In this document: positions 2,641-16,618 of the stretch, one piece after another | Numbering within the stretch: position 1 is the first letter of the stretch | How the letters are laid out: every line of letters begins with the position of its first letter | Source: an uncultured Sulfuricella sp. | Lineage (GTDB): Bacteria > Pseudomonadota > Gammaproteobacteria > Burkholderiales > Sulfuricellaceae | Direction of reading: 5' to 3' | NCBI GenBank assembly: GCA_964351305.1 | Contig: CAYGNO010000001.1 | Span: 5,332-37,331, forward strand | Length of the DNA: 32,000 nucleotides | Position numbers and translations under genes: made by a program | Notes under the pieces: model-generated | Told to the model about the DNA's origin: nothing | Databases searched by the model: none | The model's input: only the letters and a program-made list of their open reading frames with translations

Positions 2641-2927
2641 GATTCTTCCTCGGTTCGATTTCGGGTTCAAGAAGACGCTCAGCGATAGGAGACCTGATTT
2701 TCTCCCTGCTCCAGTATACGCTGGCCGGATTCGCCATGCACCACAGCCGCGTGGCATCGAGCCGGGCACCGCTCTCGCGGGCCGGCAGGCTGTGCAGGCG
2801 CTTTATGGGGTGACCTCCGGCGGCTTTCCATGTGGCACTTCCAGGCCCGCGACCGCCTGTTGCAGGGCTAGCGCGAGGCGCTGGCCAAAGGGGGCGAGGC
2901 CAATGAGGACGGGACTGAGACTCGCGC

Positions 2928-3734
2928 TCATGATCGGGGGCTCCTGCCGAGGGGGATCGGGGTCAAAGGCGTCTCGCCGTGCGTCAGGCGGCGGCGCCGC
3001 ACATGGCGCAGCAGACCATAGCCCGCCAGGGCGGCGAGCAGATGTTTGAGGGTGTGCCCGCTCACGCTCCCGCTCAGATCGAAAATGGGCCGGTCCAGCC
3101 ATTCCAGCGCCAGCGCCAGGGCGTAGAGCCCCAGCACCGCGAGCAGGTCGCCGCCGCGGGTATAGCGCGCCGGCATCAGCCACAGCAACAGCGGCACAAG
3201 CAGCATGGGGGTGAACTGCACCAGGCCGTAGGCGCGCAGATCACCCGCCCCGGCGGCCTCGGTCGCCACCCACCAGAGCACCGCGGTCGGCCCCGCCACG
3301 AGCAGCGCCGGCAGGGCGGCAAGGCCGCAGCGCAAACCCAGCCGTTCCGTCAGCACGGCGGCGGCGAAACCGGCGAAAACCACGCTCATGGCCAGGCGAT
3401 CCCATGCCAGCCGCGCATCGGTCGGCTCCAGATGATACCAGCCGGAAGCGATGCCGGTGAGGACGAGTCCGGCGTAGAACACGGCATACGCCCAGCGCTC
3501 GCGCGGGTCGGCGAACACCCCAGCGGACAGCCGCGCCAATCCCGCCGCCCCGACGACGAGAAAGAGCGCGTTGGAAGTCACGTCGAGAAAATTCGGTACG
3601 CCCAGCCAGGCGCGCCGGTCGGCGAAGTCGTGATACCACTGCGGCTGGGCAATGGGCGGCACGAAGGCGAACACCGCCGCCACGATGGCGGCGGCGAACG
3701 CGGCGATCAGAGCGATCCGCCCGCGCTCACTCAT
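2928..3734 (-). CDS. Ceramidase-domain (alkaline phytoceramidase-like) polytopic membrane protein
   Basis: Track ORF 2928..3785 trimmed to the ATG at 3734 (MSERGRIALIAAFAAAIVAAVFAF...). It has multiple hydrophobic helices and the SGWYHLEPTD and SGHTLKHLLAALAG motifs that I associate with bacterial ceramidase-domain proteins. Its start overlaps the stop of the upstream ORF (ATGAGTGA). Confidence 0.65.
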   Translation of the reverse strand: MSERGRIALIAAFAAAIVAAVFAFVPPIAQPQWYHDFADRRAWLGVPNFLDVTSNALFLVVGAAGLARLSAGVFADPRERWAYAVFYAGLVLTGIASGWYHLEPTDARLAWDRLAMSVVFAGFAAAVLTERLGLRCGLAALPALLVAGPTAVLWWVATEAAGAGDLRAYGLVQFTPMLLVPLLLWLMPARYTRGGDLLAVLGLYALALALEWLDRPIFDLSGSVSGHTLKHLLAALAGYGLLRHVRRRRLTHGETPLTPIPLGRSPRS

Positions 3735-4008
3735 CCGCCCGCTCCGACAGCAGCAGATAGGTGGCCCGGCCCATGCGCCGGGCATCGGGCAATTCCTCGC
3801 TCCAGAATGGCCAGGACAAGATATGGGCGAGACTCAAATCGACATGGCCGAGGATGCGGTGGATGAGGAACGCCCGCGCCAGCGCCGATTCGTAGGCGCG
3901 CGAGGGCGAGCAGCCAGTCAGCTCCATAAGGCCAAAAACAACGAAAACCCAGAGCGCAAGACTATGCATCATCCCGGAAACCCCGGTTGACCGCTTATTG
4001 GTGTGCAT
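3727..4008 (-). CDS. Small hypothetical lipoprotein (start uncertain)
   Basis: Track ORF 3727..4023 begins with TTG. In-frame ATGs lie at 4008 and at 3972/3969. With the 4008 start it reads MHTNKRSTGVSGMMHSLALWVFVVFGLMELTGC, which gives a basic n-region, a hydrophobic core and an LTGC lipobox. Its 8-nt overlap with the downstream gene supports translation. Confidence 0.45.
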   Translation of the reverse strand: MHTNKRSTGVSGMMHSLALWVFVVFGLMELTGCSPSRAYESALARAFLIHRILGHVDLSLAHILSWPFWSEELPDARRMGRATYLLLSERADE

Positions 4009-4098
4009 AGTGCAATGATTCAAACAGATTTTGCGTCATTTTACCGTCTCACCGATCGGGTGAGCGCGCTACGGTCGTGGGTTCCTCGGGTTGGCCGC

Positions 4099-4863
4099 CT
4101 ATCCTCCGCCGCCCGATGATTTCTGGCGGGTCAGCAATTCCATGAAATCCCCCGGCACCGGAAAAACGATGGTGTTGGTCTTGTCGCCGGCGATGCCGGC
4201 GAGCGTCTGCAGGTAGCGCAGCTGCATCGCCTCCGGCTGGCGCGCAAGGATTTGCGCGGCTTGCAGCAACTTCTCCGAGGCTTGCAGTTCGCCTTCGGCG
4301 TGGATCACCTTGGCGCGCCGCTCCCGCTCCGCCTCGGCCTGCTTGGCAATGGCGCGCACCATCGACTCGTCGATGTCGACGTGCTTGATTTCCACATTGG
4401 CCACCTTGATTCCCCAGGCATCGGTTTGCGTGTCCAGCGCCAGCTGGATGTCCAGGTTGAGCCGCTCGCGCTCGGCCAGCATTTCATCCAGTTCGTGCTT
4501 GCCGAGCACCGCCCGCAGCGTGGTCTGCGCGAGCTGGCTGGTGGCATTGAGAAAGTCCTCGACCTCGATGATCGCCTTCTGCGGATCGATCACGCGCAAA
4601 TACACCACCGCGTTGACCTTGACCGACACGTTGTCGCGCGAAATAACGTCCTGGGTCGGCACATCGAGCACCACCGTGCGCAAATCGACGCGCACCATCT
4701 GCTGGATGCCGGGAATCACTACCACCAGGCCCGGCCCCTTGACCTTCCAGAAGCGGCCGAGCATGAACACCACGCCGCGCTCGTATTCGCGCAGGATGCG
4801 AAACGATGCGGCCACCAGTACGACAATCACCAATGCGACACCGCCAAACCCGAACTCGAACAT
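4099..4863 (-). CDS. SPFH/Band-7 stomatin-like protein
   Basis: Track ORF trimmed to the ATG at 4863 ([63 protein letters not shown]...). An AAGGAG SD lies inside the 3' end of nfeD, and the gap to the nfeD stop is 2 nt. N-terminal TM anchor followed by an SPFH core. Confidence 0.9.
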
Positions 4864-4865
4864 GA

Positions 4866-6263
4866 TTACTCTCCTTTGGTTTCTGCTTCCATGGGTTTGA
4901 CCTGGAGCACCAGGCCGTCTCGGGCCAGAACACGCATTTTCTGCCCGCGCTGCAGGGGAGACCGGGCCTGCACGCGCCAGTTCTCGCCGTGCACCCGCGC
5001 CCATCCTTCAGTTTCGGTATCCTCCAGCATTTCGCCGACGCTGCCGATCAGCTCTTCGTCGCCGCTCACCACCCGGCGGCGGCGCGCCTTGATTGCCATG
5101 CCGCCGACCAGCCCGAGCAGGAGCGCGCTCGCCACGGCGATGGCGACGATCAGTTCGAGCGGGATGCCGAAGCCCGGCAGTTCGGTGTCGATCAGGATCA
5201 CCCCGCCGGCCACGAAAGCGGCAATGCCGCCGATGCCGAGCACACCGAAGCCGGGAAAAAACGCCTCGGCGACCATGAACGAAATGCCCAGCAGGATCAG
5301 CGCCAGCCCGGCGTAGTTCACCGGCAACAGATTCAGGGCATACAGCGCCAGCAGCAGGCAGATCCCGCCAAGCACCCCGGCCACGCCAAAACCGGGCGAG
5401 GTGAACTCGAAGAACAGCCCGTAGACGCCGATCATCATCAGGATCAGGGCGATGCTGGGGTCGGTGATTACCGCCAGCAGCCCGGCGCGCCAGTCCGGCT
5501 CGTAGGCGAGCAGCGGCGCGCCCGCAGTCGCCAGCAGAACTTCCCCGCCGAGCGTGTTCACCTTCCTGCCGTCGAGCTGCCGCAACAGTTGCGGCAGATC
5601 GGCGGCGACGTAATCAACCACCTTGAGCTTCAGCGCGTCCTCGGCCGGCAGGCTGACCGCCTCGCGCACCGCTTGCTCCGCCCACTCCGCGTTGCGGCCG
5701 CGCATCTGCGCCAGGCTGCGGATATAGGCGGCGGCATCGCTGACCTGCTTGCGGCTCATGGCCTGTCTGGAAGTGCCTCCCGGAGCCTGGGCGTCATCGG
5801 GTTTCGCTGCGTTCCCGGTCGGAGCTGGCGCGGGTTTCTTCGGCTCGGAAAAATCGGGCATACCGCCGATCTGCACCGGGGTGGCGGCCCCCAGGTTGGT
5901 GCCCGGAGCCATCGCGGCGACATGGCTGGCGTAGAGGATGTAGGTGCCGGCGCTGGCGGCGCGCGCGCCGCTCGGCGCGACATAGGCCGCCACCGGCACC
6001 TCTGATGCGAGGATCGCCTTGATGATCTGCCGCATCGAGGTATCCAGGCCGCCCGGCGTATCCATCTGCAGCACCGCCAATTGCGCCTTCTGCCCGGCGG
6101 CATGCGCCAGGCCGCGCACGACGTAGTCCGCGGTCGCGGGGCCGATCGCCCCTTCGACCTTCAGCGCCATCACTGGCGGCGAAGCCGCCATCAGCCAGCC
6201 GGGCGCTAGAAGCAGCAGCGCCAGCGCCAAGCGAAATGCAACTGCCCGTATTCGCATTCTCAT
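4866..6263 (-). CDS. nfeD: Long-form NfeD membrane-bound ClpP-class serine protease (stomatin operon partner)
   Basis: 465 aa. Signal-like N-terminus [27 protein letters not shown], then a ClpP-like domain ([16 protein letters not shown]...), a central polytopic block, and a C-terminal OB-fold ([38 protein letters not shown]). Canonical pairing with the stomatin gene directly downstream. Confidence 0.9.
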
Positions 6264-6353
6264 GTCCTGGGAGCCCTCGCCGTTATGAGCAACATGATGC
6301 CGGAATCGCGCATCGCCTTGCCCCCAATCTTCTTTAAACCCGGTCGTTACACA

Positions 6354-6509
6354 TCATCCCGCCAGGGGAAAGGCTTCAGCCGTATAGCTGATCGCCAGGG
6401 CGCCAAGCCTCTTGTTGAGCCCCATGGTCGGCACCACCAGCAGGTACTGGCCCGGAGGGGATTCCAGAATCCGCACTTGCGGGACTTCCTGAATCTCTTG
6501 CTCAGCCAT
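6354..6509 (-). CDS. Possible 51-aa protein (below the track cut-off)
   Basis: Hand-translated: MAEQEIQEVPQVRILESPPGQYLLVVPTMGLNKRLGALAISYTAEAFPLAG*. A GAGGGGAG SD lies immediately upstream of the ATG (6509..6507). No recognisable family. Confidence 0.3.
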   Translation of the reverse strand: MAEQEIQEVPQVRILESPPGQYLLVVPTMGLNKRLGALAISYTAEAFPLAG

Positions 6510-6530
6510 GACTCCCCTCTTCTCAATATC

Positions 6531-6557
6531 AAAGAAAACTGCCGCTTGAGGCGCAGC
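6531..6557 (-). terminator. Weak candidate intrinsic terminator after the lipoprotein gene
   Basis: On the minus strand GCUGC-GCCUCAA-GCGGC forms a 5-bp stem with one G.U pair. It is followed by AGUUUUCUUUG, about 75 nt past the stop at 6630. Confidence 0.3.
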
Positions 6558-6629
6558 AAACTGCCATCTGAGCGCCCACGCCGAAATTCAGTATAGCAGC
6601 GTCACGACGGCTAGCAGCCTGTCCTTACT

Positions 6630-7073
6630 TCATTCCTGGTTATTATGCGTGGACTGCTTTAAATGATCGATGGCCGCTTGCACACCCGCCTTAAAATCCT
6701 TCCAGGCCTCACCGGTTGCCGACTTCAATTCGTCGAGCTTTTCCGCGGCGGCCTTCTGTTCCTGCTGCAAGCGCTTGACCTGCTCATCCAGTTTCACCTT
6801 GGCTTCCCCGGTCGCCTCTTGCGCTTTTTTCTTGAGCTCTTCCATTTTCGGGTTGAGCTCATCCAAATCCTTTTGCGCCTTGCCGACGAACTCGTCGCGC
6901 TCCTGCTTCGCATACTCCATGGCGGTGCCGATGGCCTCCTTGGCCTCCTTTTTCACGTCCTCGGCGCTCACTTTGGACGGGGGTCTGTCTTCTTCCTTCT
7001 TGCTGCAAGCCGATACGGCCAACAGGAAGCCCAATAAGAAGGCCAGCAACAAGCGGTTCATGTTCGTTTTCAT
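6630..7073 (-). CDS. LEA/apolipoprotein-like, highly charged coiled-coil lipoprotein
   Basis: MKTNMNRLLLAFLLGFLLAVSAC carries a VSAC lipobox. The rest is a K/E/A/Q-rich helical sequence (DVKKEAKEAIGTAMEYAKQERDEFVGKAQKDLDELNPKMEELKKKAQEATGEAKVKLDEQVKRLQQEQKAAAEKLDELK...). A GAAGGAA SD lies 7 nt upstream of the ATG at 7073. Confidence 0.75.
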   Translation of the reverse strand: MKTNMNRLLLAFLLGFLLAVSACSKKEEDRPPSKVSAEDVKKEAKEAIGTAMEYAKQERDEFVGKAQKDLDELNPKMEELKKKAQEATGEAKVKLDEQVKRLQQEQKAAAEKLDELKSATGEAWKDFKAGVQAAIDHLKQSTHNNQE

Positions 7074-7192
7074 TTCGAGTTTCCTTCAACGATGTTCGGG
7101 TTGCAGTACGATGAATTCCCCTGTTTAAAATGAGCGGCAATTTTTCGCGGCAGGCTCATAAAGCTGGCGTAATTTTTTATCCAACGCAGCCA

Positions 7193-8401
7193 CTATTTGT
7201 TGTCCTCATCCACGGCCATTTTCAGCATTTCAAAAATACCAGGGATGGCTGTGGTCACCCGGTTCCAGTTCGGGATGAGCGGCGTGGTCATCGGATTTTC
7301 CATGAACACCCGGGTTGCCATGGCGATGGCTTTGGTAAATGCCTCCACCGCCATTGCCTCTTCGTGCCGGTCAAACCTGAGGCCGTTGATTGCTGCATCC
7401 GCTTCGTATTTCATGATCGTATCCTCGGCCTGCCGCAGGTAGGATACGAGCAAGGATTTGAATAAACCGTCCGAAAACACCACCCCTTCCGAGGCTAAGG
7501 TCCTGAAGATGGATTTGCAGATATCCACCGTCATTTTCATCAACCCCTTGTTTGCATCATCGGCAGAAAGCGCCTGGTGTTTGTGTTCGTAGTTCGCCGC
7601 GATATCCACCTGGCAAACCCGGCGATGCGAATAGTTGCGGTGCACTTCGGCCAGGGAGCCCACCTCCAGCCCCCAGTCCCACGGGATCCGGTTCGTCCGG
7701 GCCAGATCGGTAATCATGCAGATCTCCCCGGAGAGGGGGTAGCGGAAGCTGTCGAGGAAAGCGAGAAAATCATGCGGCCCGATGAGTTGCTGGAGGGATC
7801 TGGCCAGCGGCGTCACCAATAGGCGGGTAACGCGGCCGTTCAATTTGCCGGATACCCGGCTGTAGTACCCTTTGCAAAACACATAGTCCAGGTTGGGATT
7901 GACTACGGGGTAGCACAACCGCGCCAGCAGTTCGCGGCTGTAAGTAACGATATCGCAATCGTGCAGGGCAATGACGTCGGACCGGCCCCGCGCCAGCACA
8001 TATCCGTAAGCAAGCCATGCCGAGCGCCCCTTGCCGCGCTCGCCCACATTGAATCCGTTGCGGGCGAATGTTTCATAGATTTCGCTGATCCTTTTGCCGT
8101 CATTGTGAATGATCTTGACCTCCGTCGAGATCGGCGCCATGAACTCCTGTACCCGCCGGAAATCTTTCTCCGAGCCCTTGTCCAGAACCAGTACGATTTC
8201 GTTCAGATACTTGACCTTGGCAAGTTCCTGGACGATTCCCGGCATGGCCGGTCCTTCGAATTCCGAATAAAGGGCCGGCAATACCAAAGCCACAGGCCTG
8301 GTTTTCGAAAAGCCGTACAATTCGGATTCCAGACGCTCAAGCGAAGGTTTGCCGAGCTGATGGAGGGTCGTAATGATTCCTGACTGGTAAAAATCGGACA
8401 C
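7193..8401 (-). CDS. gpgS: Glucosyl-3-phosphoglycerate synthase-type glycosyltransferase (GT81 family; GpgS/MpgS class, ~400-aa form)
   Basis: GTG start at 8401 with a GGAGGA SD 6 nt upstream. MSDFYQSGIITTLHQLG... N-terminus, then VALVLPALYSEF, GKGRSAWLAYGY, the DxD-like HDCDI motif, GRVTRLLVTPLARSL, YPLSGEICM and WGLEVGSLAEV. These follow the order of GT81 GpgS motifs as I recall them from the mycobacterial and Persephonella enzymes. Donor and acceptor specificity are not provable from sequence. Confidence 0.75.
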   Translation of the reverse strand: MSDFYQSGIITTLHQLGKPSLERLESELYGFSKTRPVALVLPALYSEFEGPAMPGIVQELAKVKYLNEIVLVLDKGSEKDFRRVQEFMAPISTEVKIIHNDGKRISEIYETFARNGFNVGERGKGRSAWLAYGYVLARGRSDVIALHDCDIVTYSRELLARLCYPVVNPNLDYVFCKGYYSRVSGKLNGRVTRLLVTPLARSLQQLIGPHDFLAFLDSFRYPLSGEICMITDLARTNRIPWDWGLEVGSLAEVHRNYSHRRVCQVDIAANYEHKHQALSADDANKGLMKMTVDICKSIFRTLASEGVVFSDGLFKSLLVSYLRQAEDTIMKYEADAAINGLRFDRHEEAMAVEAFTKAIAMATRVFMENPMTTPLIPNWNRVTTAIPGIFEMLKMAVDEDNK

Positions 8402-8415
8402 GGCTGATCCTCCGG

Positions 8416-9114
8416 TTAGATATGTTCGATCTCGTCCTTGGTTTCCGCCTTTTCCGCAGGTTCCCTTTCTATCATCCGCCTCGCCGCGTCAATGCCGCCC
8501 ACGCCGAAAGAAATCGCGAGCGCTGTCACGATGCCGCCGAAGATGATCGTAAAGGCGGCGAGCACGATGCTGGGCGCAATCTGTAGCTGCTCCATGGCCA
8601 TGGCCAGAATCAATACCATCAACAAAGTGCGTACGGCATCGGCCAGGAGTTTGGCGTAGTGATAACCACTGTTTACCGCGGCAATCAATACCCCCTGGCT
8701 GATGAATCCAGTAAGCACGTAGCCGATAATCAGGATCATCGCAGCGGAAAAAACACGTGGCACATAGCCGAAGAACTGCTCGACCAGACTGTCGATCGTC
8801 GGGATATTGAGGGCGCTCAGGCCGATCATCAGGGTGACGACGATCAGCAACCAGAAAACGATAGCGCCGAGGGTGGCGGATGGCTTGTCCCACAGGTCGC
8901 CCTTGCGCATCAGAGTGGTAAAGCCCATCCGGTCGGACCAGCTATCGAAGTTGATGGCTGTCAGGGATTTTATGAGTATGACCCTGACGATCCGGGCCAG
9001 AACGATGCCCAGCACCATGATCACAAGCATGGCCAGAAGGTTGGGCAAAAAAACCTTGAACTTGAGAAATACCTCTTGCAAGGGTTCGAGTATCAGATTC
9101 AGAAATTCCATCAT
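8416..9114 (-). CDS. Polytopic membrane protein built from MscS-associated 'conserved TM helix' type repeats, without an MscS channel domain
   Basis: ATG at 9114 with an AAGGAG SD that overlaps the stop of the upstream GT gene. It contains repeated blocks of the pattern (F/V)(L/V)P-x-(L/V)-x-(A/S)A-x-(I/V)-x-(I/V)-x-G-x-(V/I)-x-(A/T): FLPNLLAMLVIMVLGIVLARIVRV and YVPRVFSAAMILIIGYVLTGFISQ. Three more hydrophobic helices follow, then an acidic C-tail. Family call is by eye. Confidence 0.75.
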   Translation of the reverse strand: MMEFLNLILEPLQEVFLKFKVFLPNLLAMLVIMVLGIVLARIVRVILIKSLTAINFDSWSDRMGFTTLMRKGDLWDKPSATLGAIVFWLLIVVTLMIGLSALNIPTIDSLVEQFFGYVPRVFSAAMILIIGYVLTGFISQGVLIAAVNSGYHYAKLLADAVRTLLMVLILAMAMEQLQIAPSIVLAAFTIIFGGIVTALAISFGVGGIDAARRMIEREPAEKAETKDEIEHI

Positions 9115-9125
9115 GATTTATCTCC

Positions 9126-10391
9126 TTAAGATTGTTTCCAGCTGGTTACGAGGTAATCCTTGTTGTTTTCAAATTCCATGCAAAGTTTTTCGATTTCGGC
9201 TTCCGCTTCAGCCCCTTCCATATCCTTCGCAGCCAGGATGAAGGATGCGGTTTTTCCCAGATAAAGCGGGGTCAGGGACTTTATCAGGTGCTCTGCCGGC
9301 AGTTTCTTCTGGTGGAAAGCGATGGCGTAATCATAGATGACCCGTGTCCACAACCCGATGGGAAAGCAGAACTCGTTGTCGGCCAAGGCGCCCAGCCGTT
9401 CCACTTCCCTGAAATCCCCGGCGCCGAGGATATTGAGCCAAATCTCGCGCAGGTTTTTCAGGCCTTCCCGGAACAGGTTCAACATCCTGGCGGTATTGAC
9501 GTTGACATGTTCGAGCCCGACGGTGTATTCGAAGCCGAAAGTCGGTACCGGCTCGGAGCCGCGTATGGGTGCCCAGGTATTCGCGTAGCTCTCCATCAGG
9601 TCGAAGCTGGCGCTCACCACCTGATAGAGCATGCTGCTCAGGTCGGCGCCGGGGTCCTTGGCGTCGTGGATCTTGGCGCCGAGAAAGGACTGGGCGACCT
9701 TGAAGCCGTTCGCCATCGCCGTCGTGGTCATCCAGATGTCGATACCGAAGCGCGCGACATCCGATTCCCACACGTCCTTGGTCAGGTAGAACTGCGCCAG
9801 CCGGCCGGAAAAACCGAAATCCCCGCCTATCGGCTGCCGCACCCGCTTGCCATAAAGCGCACGGGTAAGGGGGTAGACGATGCTGTTGGTGATGGTCCCG
9901 TCGAACTTGTGCCGGTGATAGAGCGGGGTCACGTAGTCAAAGCCGCCGATCAATACCGGCTTCACCAGCAGCTCGATCCACTCGGGCGTGATGCTCCTGA
10001 GATCGGAATCGACCACCACGCAGGCCTTTGCATCCAGCGTCCGGGCAATTTCGAAAATGCTACGAAAGGCGCTCCCCTTGCCGGGAATGCCCGAATAAGG
10101 GAAGGCGATCTTGGAGATCGGCTCCACCCGGTGATGCAGGAGAATGGCGCTGAAGTCCTCGACGGATGCGTTCTGCACTACGTCCGTGGTACCGTCGCTG
10201 GAGCCGCCGTCGGAATTCACGATCACCGCCTTGTGGGAGGGGAAGTACTTGGCCAGGCCCGCCTGCACCGCGCGCACGACGTGGCCGATGGTTCGTGCAT
10301 TATTGAAACTCGGGATGCCGACTATGATGTCGGCAGCCCCGACCTTCATGATCTGGTCATGCACCTCTGTTCTGAAGGTAATGTCATTCAT
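9126..10391 (-). CDS. GT-A fold glycosyltransferase of unassigned specificity (GT2 / mannosylglycerate-synthase-like layout)
   Basis: The ATG at 10391 overlaps the stop of the upstream gene (ATGA). Motifs present: IIVGIPSFNNARTIGHVV...VNSDGGSSDGT, GIPGKGSAFRS, the DxD motif VVVDSDL, QPIGGDFGFS and FGIDIWMTT. The order GKG...DxD...QPxGG(D/E)...(W/F)GID resembles glyceryl-glycoside synthases (MGS/GpgS type) as I remember them. Confidence 0.8.
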   Translation of the reverse strand: MNDITFRTEVHDQIMKVGAADIIVGIPSFNNARTIGHVVRAVQAGLAKYFPSHKAVIVNSDGGSSDGTTDVVQNASVEDFSAILLHHRVEPISKIAFPYSGIPGKGSAFRSIFEIARTLDAKACVVVDSDLRSITPEWIELLVKPVLIGGFDYVTPLYHRHKFDGTITNSIVYPLTRALYGKRVRQPIGGDFGFSGRLAQFYLTKDVWESDVARFGIDIWMTTTAMANGFKVAQSFLGAKIHDAKDPGADLSSMLYQVVSASFDLMESYANTWAPIRGSEPVPTFGFEYTVGLEHVNVNTARMLNLFREGLKNLREIWLNILGAGDFREVERLGALADNEFCFPIGLWTRVIYDYAIAFHQKKLPAEHLIKSLTPLYLGKTASFILAAKDMEGAEAEAEIEKLCMEFENNKDYLVTSWKQS

Positions 10392-12592
10392 CGTATGGAT
10401 AGCCCCTCTGTTTTTTCGTTACTGTTCACGGTCGCGCAGTTCGGCAGCGGCCCCTTTTCCAGCAGGATGATCTGGAGGTCCATGACGTTCGTTCCCGTCG
10501 GCCCGGTCATGAAATGGCTGCGCTCCCCTGACAAGGCATCGAGTTGTTGAAAGAATCCATAGGAGTTGTTGTCGTCAAGGTAGGCGTCAGGCCCTATTCC
10601 AAGCCGGCGCGCCCGTCCGGTCGTATTGCCGTCGACCAGCGCGCCGGCGGCATCCGTCGGCCCGTCGCCGCCGTCCGTGCCGGCGGAAAGCAGGGTCACC
10701 CCGGATTGCCGGGCTATCTCCAGGGCAAAGGCCAGGGCAAGCTCCTGGTTTCTGCCGCCTTTTCCCGTTCCCCTGACGGTGACCGTGGTTTCGCCGCCGA
10801 ACAGCAGGCAGCGCCGTTCGCCCGCTTCCAAACCGGCTTGAGTCGTGCCTGCGGTCCGCGCCAGGAAGCGTGCGGCGTCGCGCGCTTCACCCTGAAGTTC
10901 GGCGGTGACGATATCCGCGGCAAACCCGAGTTGCCGGGACTTTTCCTGCGCCGCCGCCAGGGCTTGACCAATCCCGGCGACAATCACGTTCCGGGTTCCT
11001 GACAGGCAGGGTTCGCCGGCTTTTACCGTTTCCGGCTCCAGTCCGGCGATACCCCGTTGCAGATAATCCATGACACGCCTGGGGATTCTTTCCTTCAGCC
11101 CGTATTTCTCGATCACGGACCAGGCATAGTCAAAGCTTGATTCGTCCGGCGCGGTCGGCCCGGAGGCGATGACGTCGAGCCGGTCACCGATCACGTCGGA
11201 AAGAATCATCGTCACCATCTGCGCCGGGTAGGCGGCCTGCGCGAGCCGTCCGCCCTTGACGGCTGAAAGATGCTTGCGCACCGCGTTCAGCTCGCCGATG
11301 GTCGCGCCCGCTTTCAGCAGCAAAGCGGTCACCTCCTGCTTGTCTTGCAGCGTCACCCCTTCGACAGGCGCGACCAGCAGCGCTGACGCGCCGCCAGAGA
11401 GCAGGCAGATCACCAGCGTCCTCTCGTCCGCGACCCGCATCATTTCCAGTATGCGCTGCGCGCCCTCCATCCCGGCCTTATTGGGGACAGGGTGAGACGC
11501 CTCTATCTGCTCAACCATAGCCAGTGTTGCCGTGTGGCCTTCTTTCACGACAATCAGCCCGGCGGAAATCCGTTCGCCGAGCAACGCTTCTATGGCCAAT
11601 GCCATGCGCGCCGTGGCCTTCCCCGCACCGACCACAACGATGCGGCTAAAGTCTTCAAGCGGGTACGCGGCACCGGCAACAGTCAGGCATTCGTTCTCAA
11701 GCTTTGCGGCGTTGAGCACGGCCTGGTAGGGATCGACTGCGGCAAGAGCGGCGCTAAAAATATGGGTAAGAATTGATGACGGCATTTCTTCTCCGGCGTT
11801 CCCGGCTGATAGCAATTGCAGCACCGCTTCGTTCCAGCCCAGTGGGCCGGCGCTTTGCGTCTTCATCATGCCGGCTATGGCGATGCGGGAATCGAAACTT
11901 CCGTCCTCGTGCCGGATCAGCACCGGGCGGTCCACCGCCTGGAGCAATGGCAGGTCGTTCAGACTGTCTCCCAGCCCGATGCTGTGGATTTCGCCATACT
12001 CGCGCTCGTAGAGCGCTTTCAGGGTTTTCACGGCAAGGCCTTTGTCGTGTTTGCCCATAATGTGGAAAACCCGCCCCTGGGTCCAGTGCAGGCCGGCGTC
12101 CTCTATGGCTTGCAGAAAACGTGCGTCAGGCGCGCCATCGAAGACGAAAGGTTCGTCGAAATCACGCTGCTTGGCCAGGATAGCGTCATCGCAAGAGAGG
12201 CCCGTCAACCCGGCGACCTCCTCCGCCGTCATGTCTGCAAAGCCGCGTACGCTTGCCCCCAGCCGTTCCCGGAGAGCAACGAAGTGGCGTCTGATCTCCG
12301 CATAGGGCGTGCCGAGCGTGATGCGCTGATAGCCATCCACTGAATCAACCGGCGCGGAGAAGTAGCCCTGTGGAATGAAGATTCCGCCACCGTTTTCGGT
12401 TATGAAAGGGTGGAAGTTGTGCATGCGCTGGCGACAAGCTTCGATTTCAGAGCGCGTTTTGCTGGAACAGAGAACCAGCGGCACACCGTGCGCCTGAATC
12501 AGGCTTAAGGCCGGTAGCGCGTCATTGAAGGAATACCTCACCGCATCGAGCAAGGTTCCGTCCAGATCGCTAAAAAGGATCGTTTTCCGCAT
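10388..12592 (-). CDS. Fusion protein: N-terminal HAD-IIB mannosyl-/glucosyl-3-phosphoglycerate phosphatase-family domain plus C-terminal MOFRL-type glycerate kinase (TtuD/GckA-like)
   Basis: The track ORF starts at TTG 12634; the ATG at 12592 (MRKTILFSDLDGTLLD...) is preferred. N-terminal domain: DLDGT nucleophile motif, LVLCSSKTRSE and GLGDSLNDLPLL, giving a YedP/MPGP-like layout. From about residue 285 onward: DPYQAVLNA, VVVGAGKATARMA, ASHPVPN, LLSGGASALL, LSDVIGD, FGGETTV, GKGGRNQE and GTDGGDGPTDAAGA, the hallmark order of DUF4147+MOFRL glycerate 2-kinases. It is a single uninterrupted frame. Confidence 0.85.
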   Translation of the reverse strand: MRKTILFSDLDGTLLDAVRYSFNDALPALSLIQAHGVPLVLCSSKTRSEIEACRQRMHNFHPFITENGGGIFIPQGYFSAPVDSVDGYQRITLGTPYAEIRRHFVALRERLGASVRGFADMTAEEVAGLTGLSCDDAILAKQRDFDEPFVFDGAPDARFLQAIEDAGLHWTQGRVFHIMGKHDKGLAVKTLKALYEREYGEIHSIGLGDSLNDLPLLQAVDRPVLIRHEDGSFDSRIAIAGMMKTQSAGPLGWNEAVLQLLSAGNAGEEMPSSILTHIFSAALAAVDPYQAVLNAAKLENECLTVAGAAYPLEDFSRIVVVGAGKATARMALAIEALLGERISAGLIVVKEGHTATLAMVEQIEASHPVPNKAGMEGAQRILEMMRVADERTLVICLLSGGASALLVAPVEGVTLQDKQEVTALLLKAGATIGELNAVRKHLSAVKGGRLAQAAYPAQMVTMILSDVIGDRLDVIASGPTAPDESSFDYAWSVIEKYGLKERIPRRVMDYLQRGIAGLEPETVKAGEPCLSGTRNVIVAGIGQALAAAQEKSRQLGFAADIVTAELQGEARDAARFLARTAGTTQAGLEAGERRCLLFGGETTVTVRGTGKGGRNQELALAFALEIARQSGVTLLSAGTDGGDGPTDAAGALVDGNTTGRARRLGIGPDAYLDDNNSYGFFQQLDALSGERSHFMTGPTGTNVMDLQIILLEKGPLPNCATVNSNEKTEGLSIR

Positions 12593-12658
12593 CTGTCCCT
12601 TTCCGAGGTTGCTGTGGTTTTCGTGATTTCTCAATAGTCGATCTGTAATGCCGCATCA

Positions 12659-13522
12659 TTACAGCGACGTCAGATAGGCGGCAAACTCCTCGCGCAAATC
12701 CTCATGTTTCAGGCCAAAAGCCACCTGTGCCTTGAGGTATCCCAGCTTTGACCCGCAATCGTAACGGGTGCCGCTGAAACGATAGGCCAGCAGTTTCTCT
12801 TCATGCAGCAGCGCGGCGATGCCGTCCGTCAACTGGATTTCCCCCCCCGCGCCCGCCTGCGCTCGCGCCAAATGATAGAAGATGCGCGGTGTCAGGATAT
12901 AGCGGCCGACCACCGCCAAGGTGGAAGGCGCGTCTTCCGGGCGGGGCTTTTCAACGAGACCGTTCACCAGCTCCACGCCCGGTTCCAGATGGGTTGCGCT
13001 GACGATGCCGTACTGACCCGTTTGTTCGCGGGGCACGTCCTGCACGCCCAGCACGGAACACAGGTGGCGCTCGTACACTTCCACCATCTGCTTGATCGCA
13101 GGGGGCTCGCCATCGATCAGGTCATCAGCGAGAATCACCGCGAAAGGCTCGTCCTGCACGACCGGCTGCGCGCACAGCACGGCATGGCCCAGTCCGAGCG
13201 CCTCGGACTGGCGGATGTAGATGCAGTTCACGTGTTTCGGGACGACATCCTGCACCGCGCGCAGCAGTTCCTGCTTGCCGCGTGCGGCAAGTTCCGCTTC
13301 CACCTCGTAAGCGGTGTCGAAATGATCTTCTATGGCGCGCTTGTTGCGCCCGGTGATGAACACCATATCGGTGATTCCGGCCGCCACGGCTTCTTCCACC
13401 GCATACTGGATCAGCGGTTTGTCCACCACCGGCATCATCTCCTTGGGGCTGGCCTTGGTGGCGGGCAGAAAACGGCTGCCCAGACCGGCCACCGGAAATA
13501 CGGCTTTCGTGATTCTTTTCAT
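12659..13522 (-). CDS. galU: UTP--glucose-1-phosphate uridylyltransferase
   Basis: The track start 13531 is GTG. The ATG at 13522 has a GGAG SD 8 nt upstream. [45 protein letters not shown]... is a textbook GalU N-terminus, and VEKP is also present. Confidence 0.9.
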
Positions 13523-13662
13523 CGTTGGCACTCCATTAAGACTCCCTAAATTTTTTCCACCGCATTCCAGCCTATTTCATCATAGCCTCGCGTACGCACA
13601 AAAATCATCTACGCTTGCAGATTCTGCGCGGCATCTTGCCGTTATGGATCAAGAAACGCGCC

Positions 13663-14199
13663 TCATTTTTCCACTTCCATGGAGGAATGGTTTGGCGACA
13701 GATCGGATAAAATCAGGTCTGAAAGCGGCTGCATGGCGGCTTCCTTGTCCCTGACCCCGATCTCATCGAGCACCTGAGCGAGGCTCCTGTTAAGGTTGTC
13801 CAGCACCTCGTCCGGCAGTCGATTGAGGGCTTCCGGAAGTACGCCCCGCACTGGCTGCGGAGCACTTGCGACAATTCGCGTCCCTTCATCGGTGAGGAAC
13901 AAGCGGACTATCCGCTGGTCAGGGTCATTGCGCTCCCTTCGAATCAGGTTGCGTTTCGCCAACTTGTCGAGCAGGTTGCTTGCCGTCGAAAGATGCAGTG
14001 ACATGGCCTTGGCGAGATCGGAAACCCGCTGCCCGGGATGTCCCGCCACCTCTCTCAGCACCCACAACTGGGCTCCGCTCAGCCCGCATTGATCCTCGAT
14101 CCGGCGGAAGTGCTGCTGCGCCGAACTGACGATTTGACGGAATTTTTTCAGCGCTTCCAACGATTTCTCGTGCAAACCGGATTCTTGGGTGGCCTTCAT
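13663..14199 (-). CDS. MarR-family transcriptional regulator
   Basis: Track ORF 13663..14397 trimmed to the ATG at 14199 (MKATQESGLHEKSLEALKKFRQIVSSAQQHFRRIEDQCGLSGAQLWVLREVAGHPGQRVSDLAKAMSLHLSTASNLLDKLAKRNLIRRERNDPDQRIVRLFLT...). Classic winged-helix MarR core. The upstream part of the track ORF is translated AT-rich promoter DNA. Confidence 0.85.
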   Translation of the reverse strand: MKATQESGLHEKSLEALKKFRQIVSSAQQHFRRIEDQCGLSGAQLWVLREVAGHPGQRVSDLAKAMSLHLSTASNLLDKLAKRNLIRRERNDPDQRIVRLFLTDEGTRIVASAPQPVRGVLPEALNRLPDEVLDNLNRSLAQVLDEIGVRDKEAAMQPLSDLILSDLSPNHSSMEVEK

Positions 14200-14237
14200 T
14201 TCGAGTCGATTCGTTTTCCAAAGGGGATTATAAATAT

Positions 14238-14270
14238 ATTTGTACAAAACCACTTTTACAATGCCTAATT
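14238..14270 (-). promoter_or_regulatory. Promoter/operator block upstream of marR: TTTGTACAAA palindrome plus ATGCCTAATT box
   Basis: 24 of 33 positions are identical, with identical spacing, to 23147..23179 upstream of the sucrose operon. Read on the minus strand it gives TAGGCA-N17-TACAAA and TTGTAA-N17-TATATT, both sigma70-like arrangements. The palindrome core is TTGTACAA (14240..14247). Confidence 0.5.
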
Positions 14271-14436
14271 TTTGATTATTCTTCAAGCCTTTTTCAACAG
14301 GCATTATCGTGTCGTCCGAATTATAAAATGATGAATCAGTCACTTGCTGCGGCGGAGAGAAAGCCCTGACTTCGAGAAAAAGCATCCTCCCTGGCATCTT
14401 ATGCGGATCAGCGCCGAATTGATTGGCGCCCCGCTG

Positions 14437-14468
14437 AATTAGGCTAGAATACCCATTACTGAAAAAAT
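14437..14468 (+). promoter_or_regulatory. Third AATTAGGC box / promoter-like region upstream of the channel gene pair
   Basis: AATTAGGC lies at 14437..14444 on the + strand, the coding strand of the downstream genes. It overlaps a possible TTGGCG-N16-TAGAAT promoter, with the -10 element at 14445..14450. The same 8-mer lies on the coding strand at the marR and frk sites. Confidence 0.3.
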
Positions 14469-14483
14469 TACAGGAGGATGAAA

Positions 14484-14867
14484 ATGAATCTTGAGAAAGT
14501 AATCTTTGCGTTTTTTATCGTCCTTGCGCTGACCCTGAACTTCGGTTTTTTTCTCGGCAGCATCGACAACCCGGTCCACCACAGCGTTTATGAGCTGTTC
14601 GCCGCCATCGTCATCAGCCTGATCGCCACCATCCTGAAATTCGGCGATCGCACCCATCTCGGCGCGGTGCTGCTCGCCACCAGCCTGGTGGCCGACTTGC
14701 AGCTGATCGCTGCGGCGATGGTGTGGGCGATGGCGGAACATGTCACGCATTCCGGGCTGACTCCTCACATCATGGCGATCATCGTTTCCCTTTCCGGCGG
14801 CGCGCTGCTCGCCAATATCACCTCGGTGGTGCTGCTGGTAGCCGAAACCATCGCGGTGCGCCGCTGA
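14484..14867 (+). CDS. Small 4-TM membrane protein of unknown function
   Basis: AGGAGG at 14472..14477 is followed by ATGs at 14478 and 14484; the second has normal SD spacing. MNLEKVIFAFFIVLALTLNFGFFLG... contains four hydrophobic helices. It ends 20 nt before the channel gene. Confidence 0.7.
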   Translation: MNLEKVIFAFFIVLALTLNFGFFLGSIDNPVHHSVYELFAAIVISLIATILKFGDRTHLGAVLLATSLVADLQLIAAAMVWAMAEHVTHSGLTPHIMAIIVSLSGGALLANITSVVLLVAETIAVRR

Positions 14868-14887
14868 CCGTCCGGCGAGGGCCTGTC

Positions 14888-16618
14888 ATGCACAATATCG
14901 TGTATGTCCTGCTGCGGCGCATCCATGTGCCGCTGATCGTGCTGGTGTGCGTGTATTCCATTTCCGTTCTGGGTTTTGTCCTGATCCCCGGCGTGGATGG
15001 GCAGGGCAAGCCGTGGGACATGGGTTTCTTCCATGCCGTCTATTTCGTCAGCTTCCTGGGCACCACCATCGGGTTAGGCGAGATCCCCTATCCGTTCACC
15101 GATGCGCAGCGGCTCTGGGCCACGATCAGTATCTATGGCACCGTGTTCGCCTGGCTGTATGGCATCGGCGCCGCCCTGTCGCTGTTGCAGGACCCGGCCT
15201 TTCAGTCGACCCTGCGGGCAAACGCCTTCCGCCGGTCGGTCAGGCTGATCACCGAACCGTTCTATCTGGTGTGCGGCTACGGCGACACCGGCAGCACGCT
15301 GGTGCGTGCGCTGTCCGATGCGGGTTACCGCTCGGTGGTGATCGAGGTCGAGCAGAGCCGCATCGTTGCGCTGGAACTGGAGGATCTGGGGATGCCCGTA
15401 CCCGGGCTGTGCGCCAGCGCCGCCGTGCCCAAAGTCCTGGTGATGGCGGGTCTGGACCGCCCTAACTGTATTGGTGTAATCGCGCTGACCAATGTGGATG
15501 ACGCTAACCTCAACGTCGCGATTACCGCCAAACTGCTGCGTCCCCGCGTTGTCACTATCGCCCGGGCAGAGTCGCGTTCGGTCGAGGCCAATATGCTTTC
15601 TTTCGGCACCGACCAGGTATTCAACCCCTTCGATACCTTTGCCGGGCGTCTCGCCCTGGCGCTGCATTCGCCCGGCATGTTCCTGCTGTATGAGTGGATG
15701 ACTGCCGTGCCGCACGAGACCTTGCGCGAGCCCCTGTTCCCGCCGCACGGGCGCTGGATACTGTGCGGATACGGCCGCTTCGGCAAGGCAGTGTATGAGC
15801 GTCTGGTTGCGGAGGGTGTCCAGGTCACCGTTATCGAGGCCACACCTGAAACTACCGACGCACCGCCCGGCACCATCTCCGGCTCGGGCACCGAAGCCGC
15901 TACGCAGCTCGAAGCCGGCATCAAGGACGCGGTGGGCATCGTGGCCGGCACCGACAACGATGCGAACAACCTGTCCATCATCATGACTGCGCGCGAACTC
16001 AACCCCGGCCTCTTTATGGTCGCACGCCAGAACCAGCACCAGAACAACATCATTTTCAGGGCGGCCCAGCTCGATCTCACCATGAAGCGCGGCAGCGTGA
16101 TCGCCAACAAGATTTTTGCCCTGACCACCACGCCGCTTCTGGCAGAATTTTTACAAGTGGCCCGGCTCAACTCCAACGAATGGGCCAACCAGCTGGTGAG
16201 CCGCATCGGCGGCATATCCGGCGACGAGGTGCCGCAGACCTGGGCGCTGGAAATTACGCCTGCAGCCTCGCCGGCCCTGTATGCCGGGATTGCGAGGGGC
16301 AGGCGGGCCCGCATCGGCGATCTTTGCCGCGATCCGCGCAATCGCGATGAATGCCTGCCTTGCATTGCGCTATTGATCAAACGCGGAGACGCCGAGATTC
16401 TGTTGCCGGCGGACGATGAAATGCTGCGGCGAGGAGACCACATCCTGCTATGTGGCCGCGACGGCGCAGGTCAACAAATGGAATGGATCGCGAAGAACCA
16501 CAACGTGTTCAATTATCTCTATTCCGGCGAAGAGCGCGCCAGCGGCAGTGTCTGGCGCTGGCTCACGCGCGAAAAAGAGCATCCGGCCCACCCGGAAGGC
16601 CCGCCGCCAGAATCCTGA
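14888..16618 (+). CDS. 2-TM pore-loop cation channel with two RCK/TrkA-N domains; non-canonical TTIGLGE filter
   Basis: Track ORF 14723..16618 trimmed to the ATG at 14888 (MHNIVYVLLRRIHVPLIVLVCVYSISVLGFVLI...). The pore helix and filter read FFHAVYFVSFLGTTIGLGE (filter codons 15062..15082). Rossmann motifs are LVCGYGDTGSTLV and ILCGYGRFGKAVY. Confidence 0.85.
   Translation: MHNIVYVLLRRIHVPLIVLVCVYSISVLGFVLIPGVDGQGKPWDMGFFHAVYFVSFLGTTIGLGEIPYPFTDAQRLWATISIYGTVFAWLYGIGAALSLLQDPAFQSTLRANAFRRSVRLITEPFYLVCGYGDTGSTLVRALSDAGYRSVVIEVEQSRIVALELEDLGMPVPGLCASAAVPKVLVMAGLDRPNCIGVIALTNVDDANLNVAITAKLLRPRVVTIARAESRSVEANMLSFGTDQVFNPFDTFAGRLALALHSPGMFLLYEWMTAVPHETLREPLFPPHGRWILCGYGRFGKAVYERLVAEGVQVTVIEATPETTDAPPGTISGSGTEAATQLEAGIKDAVGIVAGTDNDANNLSIIMTARELNPGLFMVARQNQHQNNIIFRAAQLDLTMKRGSVIANKIFALTTTPLLAEFLQVARLNSNEWANQLVSRIGGISGDEVPQTWALEITPAASPALYAGIARGRRARIGDLCRDPRNRDECLPCIALLIKRGDAEILLPADDEMLRRGDHILLCGRDGAGQQMEWIAKNHNVFNYLYSGEERASGSVWRWLTREKEHPAHPEGPPPES

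Follow-up and report, generated by a model that had tools for sequence, protein, structure and literature searches.

The window analysed here, a stretch of 32,000 nucleotides from contig CAYGNO010000001.1 of an uncultured Sulfuricella, contains a run of seven minus-strand genes that an original prediction, made from the sequence, had read as an operon for a glucosylglycerate (GG)-type compatible solute. In order, they encode a MarR-family regulator, GalU, an HAD phosphatase fused to a glycerate kinase, a GT-A glycosyltransferase (GT) that we call Ggs-like, a small membrane protein of the PF05552 family, a GpgS-like synthase, and a lipoprotein. In the list of open reading frames (ORFs) and by direct reading of the sequence, all seven coincide with the coordinates first proposed or differ from them by a few codons (Table 1), and Pfam and NCBIfam scans bear out the families to which they had been assigned, with GalU, the MPGP-type HAD domain, the kinase domains, and the Sll1863-like lipoprotein all scoring above the model cut-offs. 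The GG-type core chemistry originally proposed also agrees with what is present, namely GalU, an MPGP-family HAD domain, a full-length GpgS match, and a GT with a Ggs-like fold. We consider it likely that the operon is an osmotic or general-stress module that makes the anionic compatible solute GG by two parallel routes.

A sequence search of the PDB with the 421-aa GT returned only marginal matches to GpgS, and both a family profile and a fold search were needed. The best Foldseek matches of its AF2 model (pLDDT 90) among PDB entries are to the mannosylglycerate synthase (MGS) of Rhodothermus marinus (GT78; PDB 2BO4/2BO7/2Y4J), over 418-421 columns with E 7e-14 and TM-scores of 0.68/0.75. This match includes the C-terminal helical domain, whereas GpgS and MpgS match the GT-A half only. 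Full-length agreement in fold is not accompanied by agreement in sequence, as identity to MGS is 15-17% and there is no sequence-level match. The Ggs-like family comprises 708 clusters at 50% identity (E<=1e-30), and its profile does match GT81 GpgS by sequence, with E 4e-9 across the GT-A domain; the C-terminal helical domain of the Ggs-like family is missing from the GT81 enzymes (M. tuberculosis and M. hassiacum GpgS, R. xylanophilus MpgS). In the GT81 enzymes, moreover, the loop that runs from the conserved Arg to the V-T motif is longer, and it has been suggested to contact the phosphate (PMC2581804), while the Ggs-like family has the short spacing seen in MGS.

The profile alignment brings K105 (in PGKG), D128-S-D130, I167-T168, and H242 of the window GT into register with K114, D134/D136, V186-T187, and H258 of GpgS, residues that correspond to K76, D102, I138-T139, and H217 of MgS (PMC2581804). 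The catalytic Lys, the DXD motif, the His, and the Ile-Thr carboxylate site of the R. marinus enzyme are thus all aligned, I138-T139 being the glycerate-carboxylate binding site (PMC2581804). R160, eight residues before T168 (R-x7-T), is invariant in the Ggs-like family, and the acceptor-site residues as a group (I/V-T, with R at -8) are nearly invariant. The same spacing presumably holds in MgS, where we take R131 to lie eight residues before T139. Rhodothermus runs one-step and two-step routes in parallel. The donor expected for the Ggs-like enzyme is glucose, given its GalU or GlgC neighbours, as against GDP-mannose for MGS.

"Glucosylglycerate synthase" is the name that JGI gives to members of the family, some at 82-91% identity and others at about 40%. 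Some members are fused to other domains, in the forms GpgS-Ggs, Ggs-GpgS, Ggs-Usp-GpgS (once), and Ggs-TrkA_N (proteins P0127, P0495, P0171, P0123, and P0151), and the GpgS halves are of the actinobacterial type (397-437 bits, cut-off 262). Because fold, residues, JGI names, and GpgS fusions all point the same way, we regard the 421-aa GT as a probable one-step glycosyl-glycerate synthase, most likely Ggs (EC 2.4.1.268). It is established that Persephonella and Petrotoga have a one-step GgS in addition to GpgS and GpgP (PMC3736172). The second GT had been thought foreign to GG clusters, a view that does not survive the 708 clusters of the family, the JGI names, the MGS fold, the fusions to GpgS, and the Persephonella and Petrotoga precedent.

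We surveyed the gene neighbourhoods of the 80 closest of at least 599 related loci (at least 59% identity; profile from 12 sequences), 76 of which are informative in that they are uncut by a contig end. In 71 of these 76, the next gene downstream of ggs is that for the PF05552 protein, typically after a gap of 15-20 nt; it is elsewhere in the same cluster in three and absent in two. The loci come from about nine or more phylum-level lineages, which include the Gallionellaceae and other betaproteobacteria, Nitrospirota (Nitrospira and the Thermodesulfovibrionales among them), Aminicenantes, Acidobacteriota, Syntrophorhabdus and other Desulfobacterota, Nitrospinota, Ignavibacteria, Calditrichaceae, and Clostridia. 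What surrounds the pair is variable: HAD-glycerate kinase-ggs-PF05552-gpgS, gpgS-ggs-PF05552, and ggs-PF05552 alone are all found. In 45 of 81 loci a gpgS gene occurs no more than 10 kb away, the HAD and glycerate kinase genes recur in both orders, and 29 of the 80 loci have none of gpgS, HAD, or glycerate kinase detected within 10 kb of the pair. At least 16 loci have the pair directly behind genes for GlgB, a GH57+DUF3536 protein, a TreY-like protein of about 1000 aa, and two GlgC proteins, with this glucan context extending about 2-8 kb upstream of ggs and TreT+DUF5752 further upstream (loci L027, L029-L032, L034, L036-L039, L041, L043, L048, L050, L051, and L057, from Nitrospirota, Syntrophorhabdus, and related organisms). 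This setting is frequent where no gpgS, HAD, or glycerate kinase gene is detected within 10 kb of the pair, and the GlgC genes fit use of ADP-glucose.

The pair is also kept in a distant locus, L085, at about 40% identity; this locus and another distant one, L086, again combine gpgS, HAD, and ggs. In L091 (2607-5599) a gene for a 229-aa PF05552 protein comes after one for a GpgS-Ggs fusion, the flanking genes being unrelated. Three loci, L083, L086, and L089, have no PF05552 partner gene. In the first of these, a sugar ABC-transporter operon under GntR regulation ends with a gene for a thermophile-like Ggs homologue, and a gene for a 123-aa protein comes next (2791-9652). Locus L086 (1-9290), whose Ggs-like protein NCBI names as coming from a deltaproteobacterial metagenome-assembled genome (MAG), encodes two Ggs-like paralogues, a glycerate kinase beside pyruvate kinase, a 608-aa MscS protein, GpgS, an HAD protein, and an isochorismatase-family protein, with no small PF05552 gene.

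These contexts bear on whether the two GTs might instead work in sequence, with GpgS and GpgP making GG and the Ggs-like enzyme adding a second hexose to give a di-hexosyl-glycerate, either glucosylglucosylglycerate or something resembling mannosylglucosylglycerate (MGG), a product that the original prediction had put forward. Both GTs are encoded in one tightly coupled operon, the GpgS and Ggs domains are fused in both orders, and fusions often join consecutive steps. P. marina reportedly accumulates alpha(1-6)glucosyl-glucosylglycerate, and we know of no identified synthase for it. However, the nearly invariant residues of the glycerate-carboxylate site and the match of the whole fold to MGS, an enzyme using free glycerate, speak for glycerate itself as acceptor, as do the names given to family members by JGI, and the 29 loci with no gpgS, HAD, or glycerate kinase gene near the pair are not what sequential action would lead one to expect. 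As to MGG, MggA is a GT4 retaining mannosyltransferase of about 530 aa (PMC3736172), whereas the window GT is a 421-aa, MGS-like GT-A protein with no GT4/Glycos_transf_1 match and no GT-B signature; identity with the MggA pathway is ruled out. Weakened on both counts, a di-hexosyl-glycerate seems to us an unlikely product. Parallel one-step and two-step synthesis, also among the hypotheses first offered, is the best supported of them because of the MGS-like fold and acceptor site, the occurrence of ggs-PF05552 units without gpgS, and the Persephonella and Petrotoga precedent.

The 232-aa membrane protein is polytopic, with two PF05552 units (a family described in Pfam as a conserved TM helix of mechanosensitive, or MscS, channels) and an acidic C-terminal tail, and it has the conserved motifs GY..F..R.VLIAAVN.G and MALEQLGIA...AF.I.FGG.V.ALA.AFG.GG. 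Its resemblance to MscS channels lies in being built from PF05552 units, in a last helix rich in Gly and Ala (FGGIVTALAISFGVGG), and in a score of 95.5 bits against NF033912 ("msc"), for which the cut-off is 100; full-length MscS genes, moreover, often neighbour these clusters. Unlike those channels, it has neither the PF00924 beta-domain nor a C-terminal vestibule, and any channel activity is putative. The absence of the MscS beta-domain in the Pfam scan rules out its being a strict MscS channel. The monomer model is of moderate confidence (pLDDT 79.5, pTM 0.57), and with it Foldseek found nothing significant in the PDB, the best match having E 0.59 and MscS E 5.6; matches to BAR domains at E>0.5 are artefacts of long helices. 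The profile of the membrane protein likewise gave no significant match (E 0.24) to the 171-aa heptameric MscS-like chain 9seh.

PF05552 was not mentioned in the literature that we searched, and the pairing of ggs with a PF05552 gene appears to be undescribed. We know of no membrane partner reported for MGS. The membrane protein had been singled out as a novelty embedded between two GTs; it does appear to be undescribed, but this account of it understated the case, since the protein is a near-constant downstream partner of ggs across phyla. A sensor or regulator of Ggs, a valve for GG release, and a membrane anchor are all roles compatible with the data, and the Ggs-TrkA_N fusion, together with TrkA_N and MscS genes in the neighbourhood, hints at ionic or tension control. 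It is possible, although we would offer this only tentatively, that the PF05552 protein is an obligate functional partner of the one-step synthase and, across many phyla, ties the making or release of GG directly to the physical state of the membrane. Such a partner could be a sensor of tension or ionic strength that activates Ggs, or a minimal MscS-like valve for GG.

So close an association with a membrane protein also raises the question of whether this GT and its PF05552 partner together make up a membrane-associated unit whose product is a GG-primed alpha-glucan or a membrane or envelope glycoconjugate, and no free osmolyte. The GT gene seldom occurs without the membrane-protein gene beside it, the glucan context described above is found in at least 16 loci, and GG primes the methylglucose lipopolysaccharide (MGLP) of mycobacteria (PMC3240985). 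Many databases label members of the family "cell wall biosynthesis glycosyltransferase," although these are generic GT2 names. The GT itself has no transmembrane segment and the soluble architecture of MGS, the neighbours in the window are genes of osmolyte and ion homeostasis and not polysaccharide or methyltransferase genes, and glycogen and trehalose genes would be equally expected beside an osmolyte enzyme that uses ADP-glucose. We find a membrane or glucan product quite improbable, and free GG remains the product that we favour.

The two-step route would depend on the GpgS-like protein and the HAD domain. The former, of 402 aa, matches NF040724 over nearly its whole length (residues 3-401 against profile positions 2-399 of 402; 353 bits, E 1.7e-105), a model built on the characterised M. 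burtonii GpgS and carrying a narrow equivalog cut-off of 700, and it also matches PRK13915 (55 bits). Its translation contains HDCDIV, with the DXD metal site, and NGRVTR, with the G-R-V-T acceptor-carboxylate motif. These matches assign it to the M. burtonii/P. marina type of GpgS, a family membership that does not imply identical function. The HAD domain, residues 19-274 of a 748-aa ORF, reaches 222.9 bits against TIGR01486 (cut-off 164.75) and 208.5 against the mannosyl-3-phosphoglycerate (MPG)-specific equivalog TIGR02461, which is below the cut-off of 244.35. It is an MPGP-family phosphatase, for which we predict the role of GpgP, although these models do not distinguish specificity for glucosyl-3-phosphoglycerate from specificity for MPG; the characterised GpgP enzymes of P. 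marina and M. burtonii are HAD-like (PMC3240985).

The remainder of the fusion protein has the two-domain DUF4147+MOFRL architecture, with PF13660 matched at 285 bits and PF05161 at 132, each well clear of its cut-off. The more specific models are less decisive, as the glycerate 2-kinase model NF041176 gives E 2e-66 and 225 bits against a cut-off of 550, and the equivalog model NF040791 is also below its cut-off. A MOFRL kinase gene is present in 28 of 81 Ggs-homologue loci, in many of them directly beside the HAD gene and in either gene order. The two are fused in 10 of the 25 loci that have both, and all ten are titled Gallionellaceae, Nitrosomonadales, or other betaproteobacterial. Because the fusion is confined to betaproteobacterial loci, and because the HAD and kinase genes are separate but adjacent or overlapping in several near relatives, we read it as a recent, lineage-specific event. 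That a kinase should be joined to the phosphatase had been counted as another departure from known clusters. The association as such is not new, since a glycerate kinase gene beside gpgS and gpgP has been noted around GG phosphorylase genes (PMC7178133); the fusion, by contrast, belongs to this lineage. In those clusters, as far as they are described there (Franceus et al. 2017, via PMC7178133), glycerate kinase, gpgS, and gpgP are grouped at a GG-metabolizing enzyme much as they are here, a likeness at the level of gene grouping, while the catabolic GH13_18 phosphorylase at their centre is absent from the window.

This parallel might suggest that the main role of the cluster is in the turnover or uptake of GG, with the kinase and phosphatase processing glycerate and phosphorylated intermediates that arise from degradation. 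Glycerate kinase is catabolic and accompanies GG phosphorylase genes elsewhere (PMC7178133), the kinase gene of L086 adjoins that for pyruvate kinase, and the Ggs-like gene of L083 sits within a sugar ABC-transporter operon. However, no gene for a GH63 GG hydrolase or a GH13_18 GG phosphorylase is present in the operon or elsewhere in the window. Biosynthesis is the business of GalU, of GpgS, and of a Leloir-type GT, and the adjacent sucrose module is biosynthetic as well. We therefore think it very unlikely that turnover or uptake is what this cluster mainly serves, and prefer to see the kinase as part of a synthetic operon. There it would connect free glycerate, the substrate of Ggs and a product of GG breakdown, with the phosphoglycerate pool, and 3-phosphoglycerate, the substrate of GpgS, would be reached from the kinase product after mutase action.

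The junctions had been described as tight from galU through gpgS, and for four of the genes this is so. The fusion stop overlaps the ggs start in an ATGA at 10391-10388; the TAA stop of ggs (9128-9126) lies within an AAGGAG, 11 nt ahead of the ATG at 9114 that begins the PF05552 gene; and a 14-nt gap with GGAGG separates that gene from the GTG of gpgS at 8401. The gap between galU and the fusion gene is about 66 nt, so that tight coupling is limited to fusion-ggs-PF05552-gpgS. Looser still are the gaps from marR to galU (about 140 nt, 49% GC) and from gpgS to the lipoprotein gene (119 nt, 45% GC). An alternative start for galU is the GTG at 13531, and the fusion ORF is open from a TTG at 12634, which gives the 748 aa mentioned above, compared to 734 aa counted from the ATG.

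An AT-rich promoter region common to the seven genes had also been proposed. The region upstream of marR, 14200-14477, is indeed AT-rich (41% GC versus 61.5% for the window), and the promoter scan placed promoter-like sites in it at 14297-14268 and 14261-14233 on the minus strand. The second of these sites is overlapped by an inverted repeat, TTGTA-N12-TACAA, at 14261-14240 (minus strand), which ends in the perfect palindrome TTGTACAA. The repeat is a candidate MarR operator, yet short enough to have arisen by chance; the inverted-repeat search for such an operator reported nothing, and the palindrome was seen only by eye. An Rfam scan of the window found no riboswitch or small RNA. Beyond the lipoprotein gene there is a terminator-like hairpin, which is only suggestive, as sites of this kind are no more numerous in the window than in shuffled sequence.

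For the MarR protein, no specific NCBIfam equivalog reaches its cut-off. We presume that it is the regulator of the operon. Of 80 related loci, 79 lack the gene, as does the locus in Sulfurimicrobium lacus, a cultured organism with a complete genome (AP022853.1, 2373837-2395096; locus L088), in which the five-gene core galU-HAD::glycerate kinase-ggs-PF05552-gpgS, at about 2.381-2.387 Mb, is found with no marR and no sll1863-like gene. Because S. lacus has the same five-gene operon without either, MarR and the lipoprotein are accessories of the lineage studied here and stand outside the conserved core. The galU product is called as 287 aa in locus L001. The lipoprotein, in which the NF052504 (sll1863 family) match covers residues 58-144, reads as a charged, coiled-coil protein with a signal peptide and a VSAC lipobox; Sll1863 is the top salt-induced protein in Synechocystis (PMC8670252).

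In the pathway that we propose, GalU would make UDP-glucose, and GpgS would join NDP-glucose and 3-phosphoglycerate into glucosyl-3-phosphoglycerate, which the HAD (GpgP) domain would dephosphorylate to GG. By the second route, the Ggs-like enzyme, with its MGS fold, would join NDP-glucose and free D-glycerate and so reach GG in one step. The fused glycerate 2-kinase would link the glycerate and phosphoglycerate pools, serving either in salvage from GG turnover or in balancing the two routes. The PF05552 protein would be a dedicated partner of Ggs, through which GG synthesis or release most likely responds to the state of the membrane. MarR would control transcription, and the Sll1863-like lipoprotein may be a co-expressed general stress protein. 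The earlier suggestion of a self-contained module for synthesis, recycling, and release is a reasonable account of what these genes might do together, with recycling and release putative.

Several observations weigh against this interpretation. The scores of the GpgS-like protein and of the kinase fall short of the respective equivalog cut-offs, and a kinase that consumes glycerate looks counter-productive when encoded beside an enzyme that requires it, while the lack of a GH63 hydrolase or GH13_18 phosphorylase in the operon or window tells against a role in recycling. Orthology to P. marina Ggs is putative, being drawn from JGI names, fold, motifs, and context; no Persephonella entry is among the top 120 matches of a thermophile-like family profile, and the Aquificota are not among the 80 closest loci. 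Fusion proteins that join GpgS to Ggs suit two consecutive steps no less well than two parallel ones. Given the looser gaps at marR-galU, galU-fusion, and gpgS-lipoprotein gene, a promoter shared by the whole run of seven is plausible but putative, and the literature that we searched did not link GG to these taxa.

The closest functional parallel may be drawn with Persephonella marina, which has a GpgS of the M. burtonii type, a GpgP of the HAD/MPGP type, and a second GT that makes GG from NDP-glucose and D-glycerate (PMC3736172, PMC3240985). The window differs in having its GpgP fused to glycerate 2-kinase, adds GalU, MarR, and the Sll1863-like lipoprotein to the P. marina set, and belongs to a mesophilic freshwater sulfur oxidizer. 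The P. marina genes were the subject of Costa et al. 2007 and Fernandes et al. 2007 (J Bacteriol), and in the latter work ggs, gpgS, and gpgP are reported to form one operon-like structure, so that a grouping of these three is no novelty. In the window the PF05552 gene lies between ggs and gpgS.

The closest named relatives of both the GT and the membrane protein are from Sulfuricella and Sulfurimicrobium, and the host is a Sulfuricella-like betaproteobacterium. An 88-kb metagenome contig carries the same DNA. The operon is one module of an osmotic/ionic-stress island, because its neighbours are genes for sucrose synthesis, MscS, TrkA_N, NfeD/stomatin, and Usp proteins (Table 1). The S. lacus core is preceded by CBS, CitMHS, and pentapeptide genes, and genes for Na+/H+ exchangers, a MIP channel, PPK2, and P-type ATPases are nearby. 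The GC content of ggs, the PF05552 gene, and gpgS is 54-58%, compared to 61-68% for galU, the fusion gene, and the flanking genes. The products of these three genes are 79-80% identical to those encoded on Nitrospirota-binned contigs (loci L014 and L017). Low GC and Nitrospirota-like products may reflect horizontal transfer across phyla, or contigs that were mis-binned in MAGs.

Table 1. Positions of the operon, its control regions, and neighbouring genes in the 32,000-nt window
Feature	Position	Strand	Basis or remark
marR, MarR-family transcription regulator, 178 aa	14199-13663	-	Pfam MarR E 6e-14, MarR_2 E 2e-13
galU, UTP--glucose-1-phosphate uridylyltransferase	13522-12659	-	TIGR01099 379.4 bits, cut-off 326.8
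Fusion gene, HAD phosphatase::glycerate 2-kinase, 734 aa	12592-10388	-	TIGR01486 + DUF4147 + MOFRL
Fusion N-terminal domain, predicted GpgP	11813..12592	-	MPGP-family HAD-IIB phosphatase, TIGR01486
Fusion C-terminal domain, DUF4147+MOFRL glycerate 2-kinase	10388..11770	-	PF13660 + PF05161
ggs-like, GT-A glycosyltransferase, 421 aa	10391-9126	-	MGS-like fold; weak MGS_GT, GT2, and GpgS matches
PF05552 membrane-protein gene, 232 aa	9114-8416	-	Two PF05552 stretches, E 7e-16
gpgS-like synthase, 402 aa	8401-7193	-	NF040724, full length
sll1863-family lipoprotein gene	7073-6630	-	NF052504 72.7 bits, cut-off 35
AT-rich intergenic region between marR (-) and the divergent DUF6394 gene (+)	14200..14477		Promoter-like sites, short palindrome
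Terminator-like hairpin then T-run, after the lipoprotein gene	6559-6539	-	Terminator scan
Tandem Usp	2769-1762	-	
Stomatin	5004-4099	-	
NfeD	6263-4866	-	
DUF6394 gene, divergent from marR	14478-14867	+	
K+-channel-like protein	14723-16618	+	Two TrkA_N domains, TIGLGE motif
MscS	17542-16631	-	PF21088, PF00924, PF21082
Sucrose synthase	20065-17573	-	
SPS-SPP fusion	22517-19950	-	
PfkB kinase (fructokinase)	23074-22151	-	
CitMHS transporter	24673-23333	-	
CBS protein	25818-25171	-	

The pathway type, the coexistence of both routes, and the association with glycerate kinase were known already, and the claim of three components outside any known GG cluster was overstated with respect to the second GT and the kinase, although it appears to hold for the membrane protein. 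New here are the breadth of the Ggs-like family, its fusions to GpgS, Usp, and TrkA_N, the GpgP::kinase fusion, and chiefly the pairing of Ggs with the PF05552 protein.

The organisms in which GG is known are chiefly thermophiles, marine cyanobacteria, mycobacteria, and a few enterobacteria. Our survey suggests that the one-step synthase family is very widespread, occurring in the Nitrosomonadales, Nitrospirota, Acidobacteriota, Desulfobacterota, Ignavibacteria, and others, and many of the carriers are freshwater or groundwater chemolithotrophs for which the literature searched holds no report of GG. The five-gene operon of S. lacus (galU, gpgP::glycerate kinase, ggs, PF05552 gene, gpgS) is a compact set for experiments or for GG production, and its cultured host is suitable for such work. 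The constant pairing with a small MscS-related protein may give a handle on how cells sense or vent a glycoside osmolyte, whether uncharged or anionic, a question that concerns compatible solutes generally. If the PF05552 protein does prove to be a sensor or valve, it would be the first known dedicated membrane component of a glyceryl-glycoside compatible-solute pathway, and would provide a function for stand-alone PF05552 proteins.

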